The position numbers were made by a program, and so were the translations under genes. From IMG/VR virus record IMGVR_UViG_2526164631_000022, positions 1-6,088 of that record: a DNA stretch of 6,088 bases; one strand, 5' to 3'. Positions 1-6,088 of the stretch are shown here, one piece after another; positions within the stretch are counted from its first letter, which is position 1, and every line of letters starts with the position of its first letter. The stretch comes from a virus. Taxonomy: Duplodnaviria > Heunggongvirae > Uroviricota > Caudoviricetes. The notes below the pieces were generated by a model. That model searched no databases. It was not told the DNA's origin and saw only the letters and a program-made list of their open reading frames with translations.

Positions 1-1616
1 CGCCCGATGGAGGATGTACTGGCCGACCTTTATAAAGCCACCCGCAAATACGGGGAAGTTGACCGGGTATCGTTCTTTAAGGATATTGCCGGAGAAGAGG
101 CTTTCACATCATTTATGGCCCTCGTTGATGCGGCAGGTGACGGCTCCTTACCCAAACTGAGAAAAGAACTTGAAGGCGCGCGCGGTGAGGCTGAACGCAC
201 AGCAAAGGTTATGGCCAACAACCTTGACGGCGATCTGAAATCACTCGGCAGTGCATGGGAAGGGGTGCGCATCCGCATTGCAGATCTGATTGACGGTCCG
301 CAGCGTTCTGTCACGCAGTGGCTCACGCGGGTGGTATCGAAGGTGACGGCGCTGGCGCAGGCCCATCCGGCACTGACGCGCCAGCTACTGGTTGCAGGCG
401 GTGCTCTGCTGGCAATGACTGCAACCATAGGCTCGTTGTCGCTGGCTATTGGTGTGCTTGCTGGCCCACTGGCAAAACTGCGTCTTGGTTTTTCCCTCCT
501 GACCGGATCATTGAATGTTGTCAGGGTTCTGCCTGCATTATGGGGAATGGTGACGGGTTCCATTTCGTTACTGGGAGGCGCTATCGGGGCGCTGTTCAGT
601 CCGGTCGGATTGATTGCTGCTGCGTTTGTGGCTGCGGCGGTTCTCATCTGGAAATACTGGGAACCCATCAAGGCGTTTTATGCAGGGGTGTTCAGTGGGA
701 TTATGGAGCGGCTGGCTCCGTTGCGCGAAACCTTTGAACGGTTTGGCCCTGTTTTTGACGCAATCGGAAGCGGGATCAGCCAGGTGTTTAACTGGTTTAA
801 ATCGCTGCTGTCACCGATGGAGTCCAGCAAGGAAACGCTGGATAAATGTACCAGTGCTGGCGAGATATTCGGTAACGTTCTTGGCGGTGCGTTACAGCTT
901 GTTCTGACACCTGCAAAAATGCTACTGGATACGCTGGCGTGGATACTTGAAAACTTGGCGTCCTTCCGGATGAAGCGGAAAGGGCGCGCAAGAAATCGAA
1001 GACGCACAGCGTGCGGCCATTCTTCAGGACAAGGTTGCCTTGCTTCAGGGGGACCTGGCGAAAATCAATCCGCCGAAGCCTGTGGAAAATGGCAATGGCA
1101 CCGGAGGTGATAAACCCAAAGACAACAAACCACTCACAGACAGCAATACCGGTACGCTACGCAGACTCAGCAAAATTGCTGATAACACAGGTAAGCTGGT
1201 TGATGAGCGAAAAACGCATTGGCCCCGGTGATATTGTCTTTAAGAACCTGCCCCGCGCACTTGCTGTTCGTGGGGAGTGGCAGGAGCGGAAGATTGCGCA
1301 GGTCAGTAAGCCTGCCCCCGCAATTACTATCACACCCGTGGTTCCGGCTCCGCTGCCTCCGGCGCTGGTCCCTGTTGTTGCGGCCAGCTCCCGCCCGGTG
1401 GCGGAGGCTATACGATCGCCAGTGGCATCAGTTCCTGCAAATTCCCGTAACCGGGAGCCTGTTGCCTCCGGATTTGGCGGTGAAATTCATGTTCATCTGC
1501 ATAACGTTGTTACACAGAATCCCCGCGGACTGGCGAAACTGGTCGGTGAAATGGTCAGGGCAGAAATGGAACGGCGCGCCCGTGCCGGACGTGGCAGTTT
1601 TTACGATAAAGATTGA
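1..1616 (+). pseudogene. Phage tail tape-measure protein (P2 gpT-like), 5'-partial (enters from upstream of window); reading frame broken at least twice near ~965-995 and ~1210-1220
   Basis: Frame 1 (1..~970) translates to a typical tape-measure sequence with long Gly/Ala/Leu-rich hydrophobic stretches (e.g. LLVAGGALLAMTATIGSLSLAIGVLAGPLAKL). Plausible protein sequence then continues in frame 2 (~974..1228, ...EIEDAQRAAILQDKVALLQGDLAKINPPKP...) and again in frame 0 (~1216..1616, ...IGPGDIVFKNLPRALAVRGEW...RGSFYDKD*). The frame-1 continuation past ~970 is Arg-rich and looks out of frame. The breaks coincide with short homopolymers (TTCC ~964, AAA ~993, A5 at 1210-1214). This is either a genuine pseudogene or homopolymer sequencing errors; the sequence alone cannot decide. 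Confidence 0.55.
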
Positions 1617-1622
1617 GGAGTC

Positions 1623-2117
1623 ATGGCCATGATGATGATCTACGGCATGTTTGTTTTTGAGCTGCGCACATTGCCGCATCAGCAGTTACAGCAAAACAAA
1701 AGCTGGCGGCATGTGAAAAATGAACGCGTAAACCGCTCAGCAAGCTGGCAGTATATCGGCGCAGGTGATGATCGCATCGTGCTTTCCGGCGTGCTTTATC
1801 CTGAAATTACAGGTGGCGAAGTGTCGCTTTCGTTGCTGACCACGCAGGCATATACAGGACGCCCCTGGCCTCTGATTGATGGTGTCGGGCAGATTTACGG
1901 CATGTATGTACTGACTGAAACGAATACGACCCGTTCGAGTTTGATCGCTACGGCAAGGCGAAAAAAGATAGAGTTTTCACTGACTCTTGAACGCTGCGAT
2001 GAGGATTTGCGGGAACGCCTGCAATCCTCATCGTTCAGTGATATGCTGTCCGGCTTCAAAGATAAGGTCACATCATCCCTTAACAGCGCGGCCAGCTCCG
2101 TTAAAGGGCTGTTCTGA
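1623..2117 (+). CDS. Phage tail protein, P2 gpU-like
   Basis: 164-aa ORF directly after the tape-measure stop, with GAGGAG at 1615-1620 upstream. ATG at 1623, 1629, 1632 and 1635 are all possible starts. The sequence (MMIYGMFVFELRTLP...SASWQYIGAGDDRIVLSGVLYPEITGG...PWPLIDG.GQIYGMYV) fits my recollection of the P2 gpU family. T-then-U gene order matches P2-like tail operons. Confidence 0.7.
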   Translation: MAMMMIYGMFVFELRTLPHQQLQQNKSWRHVKNERVNRSASWQYIGAGDDRIVLSGVLYPEITGGEVSLSLLTTQAYTGRPWPLIDGVGQIYGMYVLTETNTTRSSLIATARRKKIEFSLTLERCDEDLRERLQSSSFSDMLSGFKDKVTSSLNSAASSVKGLF

Positions 2118-2126
2118 TTTAACACA

Positions 2127-2159
2127 AAAACCGCTAATGGCCAGATTAGCGGTTATTTT
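2127..2159. terminator. Bidirectional rho-independent terminator between convergent gpU-like gene and invertase gene
   Basis: Perfect 10-bp stem aaccgctaat (2129-2138) / attagcggtt (2145-2154) with 6-nt loop ggccag. It is followed on the + strand by ATTTTGTTT and on the - strand by TTTTTGTGTT. The invertase stop codon (2146-2148) lies in the stem. Confidence 0.55.
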
Positions 2160-2736
2160 GTTTACTCTTCTCAATTGTTCCACTTGATTCTCCTGCGGGG
2201 TGGTAACGATAAATTGTCGATATACCAATGCTGTAAATTATTGCCAGTTGTTTTCTGTCGTGACCGTTTTTAATCAGCCTTGCTATTTGCTCATGCTGTT
2301 CTTTTGTCAGCTTCGGTCGACGTCCGCCTGTGCGCCCCCGTGCGCGCGCTGCCGCCAGTCCGGCCAGTGTACGTTCAACAATTAATTCACGTTCCATTTC
2401 AGCCAGGGCACCCATCACGTGGAGAAAAAACGACCCCATTGGAGAAGATGTATCTATGCTGTCGGTCAGACTGCGAAAATTAATCCCTCGCTCCCGTAGT
2501 TCCCCGACGAGAGAAATCAGATGTTTCATGCTTCGCCCGAGGCGATCCAGTTTCCAGACAACCAGCGTGTCACCTTTTTGAAGCTGCTTTAAAGCGCGTT
2601 TTAATCCCGGTCGGTCTGTCTTTGTTCCGCTTAATTTATCTTCAAATATCTGTTCACATCCTGCACAAACAAGAGCGTTTCGTTGCAGGTCTGTATTCTG
2701 GTCATTTGTTGATACCCTTACATAACCAATCAGCAC
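2146..2736 (-). CDS. pin: Site-specific DNA invertase, serine recombinase of the Gin/Pin/Cin/Hin family
   Basis: Translation MLIGYVRVSTNDQNTDLQRNALVCAGCEQIFEDKLSG...DTLVVWKLDRLGRSMKHLISLVGELRERGINFRSLTDSIDTSSPMG...ALAEMERELIVERT... has the YVRVSTNDQ catalytic-serine motif and a C-terminal helix-turn-helix (KQLAIIYSIGISTIYRY). Preferred start is GTG at 2734-2736 with GGGAG 7 nt upstream, giving the canonical MLIGYVRVS N-terminus. The ORF track's TTG start at 2754 adds 6 non-conserved residues and is probably not used. Confidence 0.9.
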   Translation of the reverse strand: MLIGYVRVSTNDQNTDLQRNALVCAGCEQIFEDKLSGTKTDRPGLKRALKQLQKGDTLVVWKLDRLGRSMKHLISLVGELRERGINFRSLTDSIDTSSPMGSFFLHVMGALAEMERELIVERTLAGLAAARARGRTGGRRPKLTKEQHEQIARLIKNGHDRKQLAIIYSIGISTIYRYHPAGESSGTIEKSKQNNR

Positions 2737-2790
2737 ACTGAATCTCCCGTCCAAAAGCGCAAATCATGCCATGCAGGCCAGAAACGGCCA

Positions 2791-2816
2791 TTATCTAAAA
2801 CCTCGGTTTACAGGAA
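2791..2816. repeat. Left crossover site for the invertase (gix/pix/cix-like, 26 bp: TTATCTAAAACC-TC-GGTTTACAGGAA)
   Basis: Two imperfect 12-bp inverted half-sites flank a central TC dinucleotide, matching remembered gix/hix architecture. 24 bp (2801-2824) are identical to the reverse complement of 5710-5733. Located about 55 bp upstream of the invertase start. Confidence 0.8.
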
Positions 2817-3761
2817 ACGGTAAATCAGGCTTCTGGCGCATTACAGAAAAACCAGAACGGCGCAGATATTCCGGGAAAAGATATCTTCACCAAAAATATT
2901 GGTGCCTGCCGCGCATATAGCTCATGGGTGGATATTGGTGGCGATAGTCAGGTCTGGACAACCGCGCAATTTATTTCGTGGCTGGAGAGTCAGGGAGCAT
3001 TTAACCATCCTTACTGGATGTGCAAAGGCTCATGGGCTTATGCAAATAATAAGGTCATTACAGATACAGGTTGCGGAAATATTTGTCTTGCAGGTGCTGT
3101 GGTGGAAGTTATTGGCACTCGCGGCGCAATGACCATACGCGTTACTACGCCGAGCATGTCCAGCGGTGGCGGAATTACTAACGCTCAATTCACTTATATT
3201 AATCATGGTGATGCTTATGCTCCTGGCTGGCGAAGAGACTACAACACGAAAAACCAGCAGCCTGCATTTGCTTTAGGGCAAACAGGAAGCAGGGTTGCAA
3301 ATGATAAAGCTGTTGGCTGGAACTGGAATAGCGGCGTTTATGATGCAGATATCAGTGGCGCATCGACATTAATCCTCCACTTCAATATGAATGCGGGGAG
3401 TTGCCCTGCTGTACAGTTCCGCGTGAATTATAAGAACGGCGGTATCTTTTATCGTTCAGCGCGTGATGGTTATGGCTTTGAAGCTGACTGGTCAGAGTTT
3501 TACACCACAACCCGCAAACCCTCTGCGGGGGATGTTGGTGCATATACGCAGGCAGAATGTAACTCAAGGTTTATTACAGGTATTCGCCTGGGCGGTCTGT
3601 CATCTGTTCAGACATGGAATGGTCCCGGCTGGTCTGACAGGTCAGGTTATGTCGTTACGGGTTCAGTTAACGGAAACCGTGATGAATTAATTGATACAAC
3701 TCAGGCAAGGCCAATTCAGTATTGCATTAATGGAAGGTGGTATAACGCGGGGAGTATTTAA
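2799..3761 (+). CDS. Alternative tail-fibre C-terminal (receptor-binding) cassette, currently in the unexpressed orientation; no own start codon, frame open from 2799
   Basis: The frame is open from just after TAA at 2796-2798 and reads NLGLQETVNQASGALQKNQNGADIPGKD...VDIGGDSQVW...RPIQYCINGRWYNAGSI*. The ORF track's 2928 start is only the first GTG in this frame. Its first ~9 residues are encoded by the crossover site and match the LGLQETVN encoded at the right site. The C-terminal ...INGRWYN motif parallels the other fibre ORF. Confidence 0.75.
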   Translation, partial: NLGLQETVNQASGALQKNQNGADIPGKDIFTKNIGACRAYSSWVDIGGDSQVWTTAQFISWLESQGAFNHPYWMCKGSWAYANNKVITDTGCGNICLAGAVVEVIGTRGAMTIRVTTPSMSSGGGITNAQFTYINHGDAYAPGWRRDYNTKNQQPAFALGQTGSRVANDKAVGWNWNSGVYDADISGASTLILHFNMNAGSCPAVQFRVNYKNGGIFYRSARDGYGFEADWSEFYTTTRKPSAGDVGAYTQAECNSRFITGIRLGGLSSVQTWNGPGWSDRSGYVVTGSVNGNRDELIDTTQARPIQYCINGRWYNAGSI

Positions 3762-3763
3762 TT

Positions 3764-4297
3764 ATGATGCACTTAAAAAACATTACTGCTGGCAACCCTA
3801 AAACAAAAGAGCAATACCAGCTAACGAAACAATTTAACATCAAATGGCTTTATTCAGATGATGGAAAAAACTGGTATGAGGAACAAAAGAACTTTCAGCC
3901 TGATACGTTGAAAATGGTCTATGACCGTAACGGCGTTATTATTTGTATTGAAAAGGATGTTTCAGCAATTAATCCAGAAGGCGCAAGCGTCGTTGAATTA
4001 CCTGATATTACAGCAAATCGCCGGGCTGATATTTCGGGTAAATGGATGTTCAAAGATGGCGTAGTGATAAAGCGAACTTATACCGGGGAAGAGCAGAGGC
4101 AGCAGGCAGAGAATGAAAAGCAAAGCCTGTTGCAACTTGTCAGGGATAAAACCCAGTTATGGGACTCACAGCTACGGCTGGGCATCATTTCCGACGAGAG
4201 TAAACAAAAATTAACAGAGTGGATACTCTTTGCGCAGAAAGTCGAATCTACAGACACTTCCAGCCTGCCAGTAACATTTCCCGAACAACCTGAATGA
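3764..4297 (+). CDS. Tail-fibre assembly chaperone (Tfa / Mu U / P2 gpG family), partner of the 2799..3761 cassette
   Basis: 177 aa, ATG 2 nt after the cassette stop, GGGGAG upstream. N-terminus [22 protein letters not shown]...DDGKNWYEE is shared with the second chaperone and is typical of Tfa proteins. ...[18 protein letters not shown]... is also shared. Confidence 0.85.
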   Translation: MMHLKNITAGNPKTKEQYQLTKQFNIKWLYSDDGKNWYEEQKNFQPDTLKMVYDRNGVIICIEKDVSAINPEGASVVELPDITANRRADISGKWMFKDGVVIKRTYTGEEQRQQAENEKQSLLQLVRDKTQLWDSQLRLGIISDESKQKLTEWILFAQKVESTDTSSLPVTFPEQPE

Positions 4298-4300
4298 GAC

Positions 4301-4329
4301 AAGGCCCGATAGCGGGCCTTAATTTTTAT
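4301..4329. terminator. Hairpin plus T-tract between the two convergent chaperone genes (probable terminator)
   Basis: Perfect 8-bp stem aaggcccg (4301-4308) / cgggcctt (4313-4320) with loop atag, followed by AATTTTTATT on the + strand. It sits at the centre of the invertible segment, so it is positioned the same way in either orientation. Confidence 0.45.
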
Positions 4330-4853
4330 TCAGGCTTTTGTGGCCATTCAGGATTTGCCGTATCCACACGGCTGACCAGAACACTGTAGCGTTCCCATGC
4401 TTCCAGTCGTGTGCGCTCCTCGTCTGTTGCCATATTCAGCCTGGCAGCGCGTTCCAGTGGCTGGATGACTGATTCAGTTTCGGAAAGCAATGCGGCCTTT
4501 TGTGATTCGGCCTGTTGTTGCTGTTCGTCTGCTGTATAAATCCGCTTAACCACAGTTCCGTCCTTAAACATCCACTTCCCTGAATCATCGGCACGACGAT
4601 TGACTGTTATATCTGGAATCTCAACGACACTAAAGCCTTCGGGATTAAGCGTTGAGGCATCTTTGGTTATGGCAACAATAATATTATTTTCGTCGTAAAC
4701 AATCTTTATGGTGTCTTCCTGAAAGCTATTTACTTCCTCATACCAGTTTTTACCGTCTTCTGTATATAACCAGATAACATCAAAATTCTTTGTTAGCTGA
4801 TATTGCTCTTTTGTTTTTGGATTTCCTGACTTAATATTTTTTAAATGCTGCAT
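4326..4853 (-). CDS. Tail-fibre assembly chaperone (Tfa family, lambda-Tfa-like C-terminus), partner of the currently expressed fibre tip
   Basis: 175 aa, ATG 3 nt after the fibre stop with AGGTG upstream. N-terminus [22 protein letters not shown]...EDGKNWYEE. The C-terminus ...[27 protein letters not shown] resembles the lambda Tfa C-terminus as I remember it. Confidence 0.85.
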
Positions 4854-4856
4854 AAT

Positions 4857-6020
4857 TTACACCTGTGCTACGTTATACCATGTGCCATTGATGTATTTTT
4901 GTATTGGTCTGAAGATGGCTTCATCATCGCCATCTACTTCACCAATGATTCTTAATCCGGTAATTGCGTGTCCGGCTTTTTCATAACGACCACCACGCGC
5001 CATCAATTGAACAACTCGCGTACCCAGGCGAACATCTTTTACATAGCGTGAATCAAAATTCCCCCAGTTGCTGGGCTGTATCTGACCGTTAACAGAAAAT
5101 ATTACCGAGTTATCTGTATTTCGCTGGCTATAGAAATGCCATCCTGCCTCATCGCCTAACTCTGCAACTACTGGACGGGTTGAAGCACCCCATAAATTAA
5201 ACGTTACATTCTTTGTGGAGGTGTTGGAGCTGGATAGCGAGATTTTTTTACTATCACCTGCCTGAATGTTTTTAAAAGCAATAGCAACTCCATTCTGAAA
5301 GCGGAATACTCGCTGACTATTAGCGTAAACATCAAGAATACCGTCTCCATTCTGTTTAAATCCGGTATCATTATCACCAAGAACAATAGAGCTACCACCT
5401 AACGCATTCGTCGTACCAACTCCAAGGCTGCCATTAATGACGGCATTAACAAGAATATTTAGTGCATCCCATTTCAGCGTCATCAGGTCTTTTGTTGTGG
5501 TGCTTTGTTTGCTTCTCCATTTGAAATATTCATTGCCGTTGTCGCCTGTTTCAAACCACATGTATGAATCAGTATCGCTGTCGGCATCATTTTTAAATCC
5601 AATCTTCGCCCAGTCAGTATTTCGAATCCAGGCAAGGATTGAGTCGTTTTCAAAAGTAAGCCCACCGGACAAGGTATCGCCATTCTTTTGCACGGCGTTC
5701 CTGGCCCTGTTTACCGTTTCCTGTAAACCGAGGTATTCGATAACAGCGGCAACGGTCGATTTCGCAAGAATATCCCGCCCGACTTTTGTCAGGGTTGCCA
5801 GGCTGGCGACATCATTCCCCGTAAAATACGGAAACTTGTCTGCCGCAGTAGCAAGCCCGGCCAGCGCCGTCAGGGTGGCATCTTTCGGTTGCTTACCCGC
5901 AAGCGCTTTAGTCATGGTGGTCGCAAAATTCGGGTCGTTTCCCAGCGCCGCCGCTAACTCGTTCAACGTATTCAGTGCGTCAGGCGACGAGTCTACAAGT
6001 GCGGCAATCGCGGCCATCAC
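4857..6020 (-). CDS. Tail-fibre protein, currently assembled form: constant N-terminal ~96 aa (6020..5733, outside the segment) fused to variable C-terminus (5729..4857, inside the segment)
   Basis: 387-aa ORF. The start is GTG at 6018-6020 or, more likely, ATG at 6015-6017, which overlaps the upstream gene's TGA (ATGTGATGG on the - strand). The ORF spans the right crossover site in frame. Gly/Asn/Ser/Thr-rich fibre-like body ends ...RPIQKYINGTWYNVAQV*. An in-frame stop at 6066-6068 means it cannot extend further upstream. Confidence 0.85.
   Translation of the reverse strand: MMAAIAALVDSSPDALNTLNELAAALGNDPNFATTMTKALAGKQPKDATLTALAGLATAADKFPYFTGNDVASLATLTKVGRDILAKSTVAAVIEYLGLQETVNRARNAVQKNGDTLSGGLTFENDSILAWIRNTDWAKIGFKNDADSDTDSYMWFETGDNGNEYFKWRSKQSTTTKDLMTLKWDALNILVNAVINGSLGVGTTNALGGSSIVLGDNDTGFKQNGDGILDVYANSQRVFRFQNGVAIAFKNIQAGDSKKISLSSSNTSTKNVTFNLWGASTRPVVAELGDEAGWHFYSQRNTDNSVIFSVNGQIQPSNWGNFDSRYVKDVRLGTRVVQLMARGGRYEKAGHAITGLRIIGEVDGDDEAIFRPIQKYINGTWYNVAQV
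5718..5743. repeat. Right crossover site for the invertase, in inverted orientation (TTCCTGTAAACC-GA-GGTATTCGATAA)
   Basis: Its reverse complement TTATCGAATACC-TC-GGTTTACAGGAA differs from the left site at only 2 positions of the outer half-site. It lies inside the - strand tail-fibre ORF, where it encodes ..IEYLGLQETVN... Confidence 0.8.
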
Positions 6021-6088
6021 ATAAGCCGTGCTTGCGATCTGAGTATTATTAGTCCCTTTTTGGCGTCAGTTGGCGTTGTTGGCGTTCG
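6017..6088 (-). CDS. 3' end of an upstream tail/baseplate-module gene (partial, continues beyond window), translationally coupled to the tail-fibre gene
   Basis: Open frame on the - strand from the window edge ends ...RTPTTPTDAKKGLIILRSQARLM* with TGA at 6017-6019, overlapping the fibre start. Only 23 codons are visible, so the product cannot be identified. Confidence 0.35.
   Translation of the reverse strand, partial: RTPTTPTDAKKGLIILRSQARLM

Follow-up and report, generated by a model that had tools for sequence, protein, structure and literature searches.

A probable Mu G-segment-type tail-fibre switch on a P2 gpH-type constant part, carried by a P88-like prophage of Escherichia coli

The window analysed here (a viral DNA of 6,088 nucleotides, positions 1 to 6,088 of IMG/VR record IMGVR_UViG_2526164631_000022) very probably carries a host-range switch of the Mu G-segment type, which is built on a P2 gpH-type constant part, resides in a P88-like prophage, and is served by a Gin-family invertase. 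The switch itself is real, well understood, and already known: by mechanism and by descent, it is the Mu G-segment/Gin system. The process by which inversion of the Mu G segment splices one constant 5' part of a fibre gene to two 3' parts has been textbook material since the early 1980s. That a fixed 5' portion of the fibre gene is spliced in frame to either of two 3' portions that invert was the founding observation on Mu G inversion, reportedly made by Giphart-Gassler, Plasterk, and van de Putte in 1982 and by Grundy and Howe in 1984. The original prediction read from this DNA a fibre of 387 residues, or of 415 residues after inversion, with a constant part of 96 residues; fibres of that size are an artefact of the window edge and of a frameshift.

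The window is the tail-fibre end of a P88-like prophage of E. coli (Xuanwuvirus, Peduoviridae; P2-related). Its best matches, prophages in E. coli ETEC-2264 and TW10828, are 98.8% identical over the whole window, and the viable temperate phage P88 is 94.3% identical over 94% of it. Prophages that match at a coverage of at least 80% are present in about 100 complete E. coli genomes. The gene order T-U-invertase-[Sv' U' / U Sv]-H-I-J-W-V is identical in P88, TW10828, ETEC-2264, and FDAARGOS_1059. One strand carries the genes for sheath, tube, E, E', tape measure, and gpU, and these converge on the invertase, the segment, the fibre constant part, gpI, gpJ, gpW, and gpV of the other strand. Within the window, the + strand begins with the 3' part of the tail tape measure gene (7..1616), followed by a gene for a P2 gpU-type tail protein (1623..2117; Pfam Phage_P2_GpU), which converges on the invertase gene; a terminator-like hairpin is present at 2129-2154. 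In P2, the order H-G-FI-FII-E-T-U is colinear, whereas in the P88 type the tail block ending in T-U converges on the fibre block. A secondary rearrangement was considered as the source of the opposite orientation of T-U and H, but was rejected, given that the same convergent layout is found in viable P88 and in all of the relatives. The P88 paper contains no description of an invertase or of inversion.

The one outstanding repeat of the window is an inverted repeat of 34 nt (2791-2824 and 5710-5743), whose arms match at 32 of the 34 positions. Each arm contains a 26-bp gix-like crossover site: the left site occupies 2791-2816 (TTATCTAAAACC-TC-GGTTTACAGGAA, core 2803-2804) and the right site 5718-5743 (TTCCTGTAAACC-GA-GGTATTCGATAA, core 5730-5731). 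Both sites consist of two 12-bp half-sites around an asymmetric 2-bp core, with the TC and GA cores in inverted orientation, and both are built like the crossover sites of Gin/Hin-family invertases. The left site has a single mismatch to the Mu site (TTATCCAAAACC...). The inner half-sites of the two sites are identical to each other, and the right inner half is also identical to that of Mu. The right outer half-site (TTATCGAATACC), which lies within the fibre codons ..VIEYL, differs from the left outer half at two positions.

The cores occupy equivalent positions in their reading frames. On the - strand, the core TC forms nt 2-3 of a CTC (Leu) codon, codon 97 when counted from 6020, and on the + strand the TC at 2803-4 forms nt 2-3 of the CTC at 2802-4. 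This much had been pointed out in the original prediction, and its coordinates and arithmetic are exact. The expectation that inversion would yield an in-frame fusion also proved correct: when 2805..5729 was reverse-complemented in place, the frame stayed open, with neither a stop nor a shift at the junction, and ran for 415 codons from 6020, compared with 387 at present. Translation across the inverted junction gives ...AAVIEY-L-GLQETVNQASGALQKNQNGADIPGKD..., and a fibre peptide spanning the splice would be expected to read ...VIEYLGLQETVNR/Q.... The phase agreement had further been offered as a test of the second cassette. The cassette is real, but the phase match follows automatically from the identity of the two arms over the 23 nt that run inward from the Leu codon. 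What is informative instead is the long open frame that follows the arm. From the stop-triplet frequency of the window, the probability of 319 stop-free codons beyond the repeat is ~2e-6, and a 319-codon frame remained open in 0 of 20,000 shuffles; therefore, this frame is not a matter of chance. Directly upstream of the Sv' cassette, and in its frame, there is a TAA stop (2796-2798).

The segment holds two variable cassettes, each with a chaperone gene. The Sv-type cassette (4857..5732, - strand), which is currently joined to the constant part, is 291 codons long with the junction Leu counted in; it belongs to the P2 gpH tip type and is 100% identical to the C-terminus of the ETEC-2264 fibre. 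The Sv'-type cassette (2802..3761, + strand), silent in the present orientation, comprises 319 codons from the junction Leu, and its first own start codon comes only at 2928. Its sequence is 95% identical to residues 170-488 of Mu S' (PDB 8JU3) and matches the C-terminus of the FDAARGOS_1059 fibre at 100% identity. Pfam fibre domains are present in both cassettes. The U-type tail-fibre assembly chaperone for Sv (4326..4853, - strand; 175 aa; Pfam Caudo_TAP, E 1e-34) is identical to WP_001164128.1 of TW10828, and the U'-type chaperone for Sv' (3764..4297, + strand; 177 aa; Pfam Caudo_TAP, E 1e-33) is identical to WP_000972151.1. A G+C-rich hairpin followed by a T run, resembling a terminator, is found inside the segment between these converging chaperone genes (4301..4320, + strand). 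A promoter scan yielded nothing that exceeded shuffle expectation.

Solved structures place the crossover at the same residue. PDB 8JU3 ('Tail fiber protein S, Tail fiber protein S''), a protein of 488 aa, is a fusion of Mu Sc (169 aa) with Sv' (319 aa), and its alignment with the Sv' cassette of the window starts at residue 170, which is the same Leu as that of the crossover. The structure of Mu S with the chaperone U has also been solved (5YVQ/9KI1).

Beside the segment, the gene at 2146..2736 (- strand) is predicted to encode a small serine recombinase of the invertase subfamily. This Gin-family DNA invertase of 196 aa carries the catalytic Ser9 (MLIGYVRVS9) and matches the Pfam families Resolvase (E 4e-50) and HTH_7 (E 6e-13). 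It is 84% identical to Mu Gin and 96% identical to WP_000905056.1, and it matches the crystal structures of Gin (PDB 3UJ3/4M6F) with an E value of ~1e-97. A compensated -1/+1 pair at 2422/2433 results in the changes R102S and F105L relative to Gin and the closest homologues. The 5' ~200 nt of the gene are ~97% identical to the Mu gin region, and the 5' ~400 nt align with Mu gin with few substitutions. In Mu, this 5' region of gin contains the Fis-dependent enhancer, and, by analogy, the switch in the window may likewise depend on Fis and an enhancer.

Both orientations of the segment are found among natural prophages. The prophage of FDAARGOS_1059 has chaperones, invertase, gpU, gpI, gpJ, gpW, and gpV that are accession-identical to those of the TW10828 prophage, and its segment is inverted. 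The 415 residues predicted from the inverted window are 100% identical to the last 415 residues of the 656-aa FDAARGOS_1059 fibre, WP_000108566.1. Thus, the claim that inversion yields an alternative C-terminus is confirmed to the residue, given that an annotated fibre contains the exact junction and the whole of the predicted sequence. The inverted junction (500 nt) is present in 127 complete genomes at a coverage of at least 80% and is contiguous at 100% identity in 2 complete genomes (FDAARGOS_1059 and O111:H2 12A), while the present junction, on the fibre side, is present in 358 complete genomes at a coverage of at least 80%. For the junctions on the invertase side, 228 genomes have the inverted form and 135 the present form. 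The comparison of near-identical prophages with opposite orientations, together with the four types of junction, strongly indicates that the segment inverts. The second cassette is a genuine alternative fibre tip, both full-length fusions being annotated in sister prophages. In P2-like prophages of EPEC, inversion has been seen directly by sequencing clonal cultures (PMC4272514), and tail-fibre inversions have been confirmed by long reads in a systematic survey that included FDAARGOS_1059 at another locus (PMC9881135).

The switch would operate as follows. The invertase would bind the two inverted gix-like sites and cut at the 2-bp cores (2803-4 and 5730-1), and rotation and religation would then flip the 2.9-kb segment between the sites. 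From what is known of Mu and Hin, invertase dimers at both sites would synapse with a Fis-bound enhancer, and cleavage would proceed via phosphoserine links, followed by 180-degree rotation and religation; the mechanism of Gin has been described (PMC3575834). The constant N-terminal part, which would be transcribed from outside the segment and would attach to the baseplate, would be joined in frame either to Sv and U, giving the P2 gpH-type tip of the present orientation, or to Sv' and U', giving a Mu S'-type tip. Splicing to either cassette would be in frame because both cores lie in the same Leu codon of the fibre frame, and each cassette would bring its own assembly chaperone. The outcome would be virions with one of two receptor specificities and, as for Mu, lysates would be expected to contain two virion types that differ in this respect. 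In Mu, 34-bp inverted repeats, a 2-bp crossover core, and G(+)/G(-) host ranges have been described (PMC4406740). The rate of flipping may be like that of Mu. The consequence for host range may also be like that in Mu, judging from Mu G(+)/G(-) and from the 95% identity of Sv' to Mu S'.

The fibre gene does not begin at the GTG at 6020, where the original prediction had placed its start. This codon is an internal Val codon of a P2 gpH-type fibre, because it is not preceded by a ribosome-binding sequence, because homology continues without a break upstream of it, and because the protein read from it is identical to residues 418-804 of a longer fibre. Specifically, the 387 residues encoded by 6020..4857 match the C-terminal 387 residues of the 804-aa fibre of ETEC-2264 at 100% identity, and residue 1 of this ORF corresponds to Val-418 in that fibre, to Val-330 in the P88 fibre, and to Val-242 in the FDAARGOS_1059 fibre. 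The sequence ahead of 6020 (GCAAGCACGGCTTAT) contains nothing that resembles a Shine-Dalgarno sequence. In the frame of 6020, translation from the window end gives ...N*RQKGTNNTQIASTAY-VMAAIAAL..., while another frame upstream of 6020 gives RTPTTPTDAKKG, of which RTPTTPT.. continues the homology to full-length fibres up to the window edge. When the extra bases at 6057 and 6066 are left out, alignment with the closest relatives gives TPTTPTAPKGTNNTQIASTAYVMAAIAAL as the continuous reading. An internal translational start at 6020/6017 was also considered and was rejected on the same grounds, namely the lack of a ribosome-binding sequence and the continuous upstream homology.

What the window does contain is the 3' end of the constant part (5733..6088, - strand), the P2 gpH-type equivalent of Sc, which continues past the window edge and has the same sequence as residues 418-513 of the ETEC-2264 fibre. 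Its frame is broken by the 1-nt insertions at 6057 and 6066, with an in-frame TGA at 6068-6066. Only 68 nt of the constant part are visible upstream of 6020, and the fibre gene starts beyond the window. In the relatives, the full fibre has 804 aa (ETEC-2264), 764 aa (P88), or 656 aa (FDAARGOS_1059), and the constant part 513, 425, or 337 aa, respectively, compared with 169 aa in Mu S. The differences in constant-part length among these three relatives are multiples of a 44-aa repeat. Because 6020 is not a gene start, the 387 aa, the 415 aa, and the 96-aa constant part are not gene products but C-terminal portions; as codon counts from 6020, the first two numbers are nevertheless exact. The constant part had seemed puzzlingly short at about 96 aa, and this puzzle vanishes with the 337-513 aa of the relatives, to whose interior these residues belong. 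The original prediction had also considered that the true start might be elsewhere and 6020..5733 noncoding. The start is indeed elsewhere, yet 6020..5733 remains coding sequence from the interior of the gene. A single intact ORF that combines an N-terminal baseplate-attachment region with a repeat shaft was not found in the window. With its frame disrupted at 6057/6066 and its N-terminus outside the window, the fibre is P2 gpH-type by descent, but is not demonstrably intact in this copy.

Compared with all close relatives, the window has undergone about eleven indel events, nearly all of single bases. Four 1-nt deletions (949, 992, 1207, and 1209) break the tape measure gene into three reading frames, a compensated pair lies in the gpU gene (1935/1961), and the invertase gene has lost 4 nt at its 3' end (2163). 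All of the indels fall into two clusters, 949-2433 and 6057-6066, which leaves 2434-6056 free of them (P ~5e-5 if they were uniformly distributed), and the window is identical to ETEC-2264 from ~3500 to 6056. The two insertions in the fibre gene, at 6057 and 6066, are present in 0 of 1,013 matching complete genomes and are therefore derived. Most of the indels are in or beside A/T runs, and two compensated pairs have members that are 11 and 26 nt apart. A defective prophage and sequence errors in the indel stretches are about equally likely.

Three other readings of the window have to be weighed. A stand-alone fibre gene starting at GTG 6020 would make proteins of 387 and 415 aa that share a constant part of 96 aa. 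Such a gene is suggested by the ORF itself, in which the GTG is followed by an ATG and an in-frame TGA lies 15 codons upstream. However, the 15 codons between this TGA and the GTG, as well as the RTPTTPT stretch, correspond to internal sequence of full-length fibres; an 804-aa protein contains the ORF, residue for residue, as its C-terminal part; and a Shine-Dalgarno-like sequence is lacking before 6020. Moreover, a fibre without the gpH N-terminal domain would not be expected to attach to the baseplate, and an exact product of 386 or 387 aa is absent from 153 billion gene calls. This reading is close to refuted, and scarcely any probability can be assigned to it. It is quite another matter to suppose that the indels are real and the prophage defective, so that the switch is a fossil. 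The intact invertase may then allow the segment to go on flipping, as in e14, but inversion would be without phenotype, because no functional fibre or virion would be made. This has a little less than an even chance of being right. It is consistent with the number of indels, which break both the tape measure and the fibre, and with the derived state of the 6057/6066 insertions. Decay is also seen in a sister prophage, as the ETEC-2264 tape measure gene contains an IS100 and one of the ETEC-2264 tail genes an internal stop. Yet indels at A/T runs, closely spaced compensated pairs, and an indel-free stretch of 3.6 kb are also what uneven sequence quality would leave.

The indel-free 3.6 kb has a bearing on one further reading, in which the module has been domesticated. 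The host would have kept the invertase and the cassettes of a dead prophage, and a fibre fragment, truncated or chimeric, would serve as a switchable receptor blocker directed against other phages. Within this stretch lie the 5' portion of the invertase gene, the two cassettes with their chaperones, and as much of the constant part as is visible, while its flanks have indels, and a precedent exists in PinQ/StfE2 of e14 (PMC12529663). However, an internal start would lack both a promoter-like and a ribosome-binding signal, and the stretch is identical to the corresponding DNA of intact prophages elsewhere, so that a recent origin or good sequence quality fits equally well. Domestication is accordingly a very improbable explanation, and the more specific proposal, that a decayed prophage uses a 387- or 415-aa fragment from an internal start as a phase-variable receptor-blocking or anti-phage protein like PinQ/StfE2, would be just as hard to credit. 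The preferred reading remains that of a G-segment-type switch in a P88-like prophage.

The similarity of this switch to the Mu G segment and Gin is extensive. The order Sc, gix, Sv U / U' Sv', gix, invertase is the same, as are the 34-nt inverted repeat, the inner half-site, the TC core, and the Leu codon at the crossover (L170 of Mu S). Mu and D108 are ~93% identical to the window over 2357-5750, a region that comprises the 5' two-thirds of gin and the G segment. The first 135 aa of the Sv of the window also match Mu S, although overall this Sv is only 46% identical to that of Mu, and the middle of the cassette is of the P2 H type. The window further differs from Mu in its constant part, which is unrelated to that of Mu and of the P2 gpH type; in the C-terminal third of the invertase, which has diverged; in the absence of mom and com beside the invertase gene; and in the host element, which is P2-like rather than transposable. 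The homology to Mu breaks off no more than a few bases from where the right site ends on its outer side. Therefore, the invertible segment is a module common to otherwise unrelated phages, and only the constant part is of P2 lineage. The P88-type prophage illustrates module exchange neatly, since its homology to Mu ends exactly at the outer border of the crossover site.

Other known elements resemble the window to different degrees. The same element, at 94-98.8% DNA identity, is found in the P88-like prophages (ETEC-2264, TW10828, FDAARGOS_1059), in phage P88, and in Citrobacter phage phiSM. Unlike these relatives, the window carries 1-nt indels of its own; the relatives vary among themselves in how many 44-aa repeats their constant part has, and the Sv tip of P88 is of the Mu type and not of the P2 type. 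The C segment of P7 is 95.8% identical to the window over 2838-5681, and the C segments of P1 and P7 with Cin share the invertible Sv/U/U'/Sv' cassettes and the splicing of a constant to a variable part of the S gene. However, P1 has another and far longer Sc, Cin serves as the invertase with cix as its sites, and the prophages are plasmids. P2 gpH is 96.6% identical, in its last 387 aa, to the 387 aa of the window, including LGLQETV, which is encoded by the crossover site; in P2, however, gpH/gpG form a fixed fibre system, and P2 has neither an invertase nor a second cassette.

More distant counterparts are known from Shigella and from e14. Tominaga et al., writing in J Bacteriol in 1991, are said to have found the B-pinB element of Shigella boydii nearly identical to G-gin but with a different constant region, as is the case here. 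The P segment with PinE of e14 and the B segment with PinB of Shigella boydii are Gin-family inversion systems of defective prophages, in which a constant 5' part is fused to alternative 3' parts (PMC4272514). Unlike the prophage in the window, e14 belongs to the lambdoid group and carries other cassettes.

Annotations of this element already exist for many complete E. coli genomes and cover both orientations, and the significance of the present case lies mainly in correct annotation. For the scanning of such windows, the lesson is that an ORF beginning near a window edge should not be read as a complete gene. Switches of this kind have silent cassettes, for which 'partial/frameshifted tail fiber' or 'hypothetical protein' is a routine mis-annotation.

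Nucleotide homology between the window and phages Mu and D108 starts at position 2357, within the invertase gene, and stops at 5750, at the outer limit of the right crossover site. The C-terminal, DNA-binding third of the invertase is diverged. This distribution of homology marks a sharp mosaic boundary of the exchanged module. The first 30 or so residues of Sv' past the crossover (NQASGALQKNQNGADIPGKDIFTKNIG; window 2817-2900) are similar to the stretch of Mu Sc that lies just before it (NANARLAKDRNGADIPNKPLFIQNLG), the comparison being made with Mu Sc residues 132-171. This likeness has the look of an ancient duplication around the crossover site.

Just past the inverted repeat, the prophage of E. 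coli TW10828 (L001, near 8820 and near 11717, corresponding to 2825 and 5709 in the window) has the T after GGTAAA on the Sv arm, and not on the Sv' arm. Thus, the Sv and Sv' cassettes of TW10828 are both frameshifted just past the repeat, and the annotation divides its fibre into two CDSs and one "frameshifted" fragment. An exchange within the CAGG that lies just past the repeat would produce this placement of the T, and a consensus assembled from a culture of mixed orientation would produce it equally.

Sequence comparison reveals about 11 indel events, almost all of a single base, that set the window apart from all of its close relatives. These are bunched within the stretch containing the tape measure, gpU, and invertase genes (949, 992, 1207, 1209, 1935, 1961, 2163, 2422, and 2433) and within the last 30 nt (6057 and 6066), with none in the intervening 3.6 kb. 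The tape measure gene is present as three frames, and the frameshifts in gpU and in the invertase gene are compensated within 26 nt and 11 nt, respectively. In the invertase, the compensated frameshift (2422-2433; residues 102-105) turns GRFFFH, conserved in Gin and in every close homologue, into GSFFLH. The change adjoins His106, the position to which Fis-independent Gin mutations map. The indels may represent prophage decay, or they may arise from uneven sequence quality. In the closest relative, ETEC-2264 (L005, approximately 10492-12293), the tape measure gene is interrupted by IS100, and one tail gene has an internal stop; thus, sister copies of the window prophage are decaying too.

The constant parts of the fibre in the relatives vary in length in whole units of a 44-aa repeat (...QLSSATNSTSETLAATPKAVKAAYDLANGKYTAQDATTARKGIV...), with 5 copies in ETEC-2264 (L005:4710-7124), 3 in phage P88 (L002:10865-13159), and 1 in FDAARGOS_1059 (L004:5238-7208). 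Consequently, the length of the fibre shaft differs between otherwise near-identical prophages.

Two terminator-like hairpins are present in the window, each between converging genes: one, bidirectional, at 2129-2154, between gpU and the invertase gene, and another at 4301-4320, within the invertible segment, between the U' and U chaperone genes.
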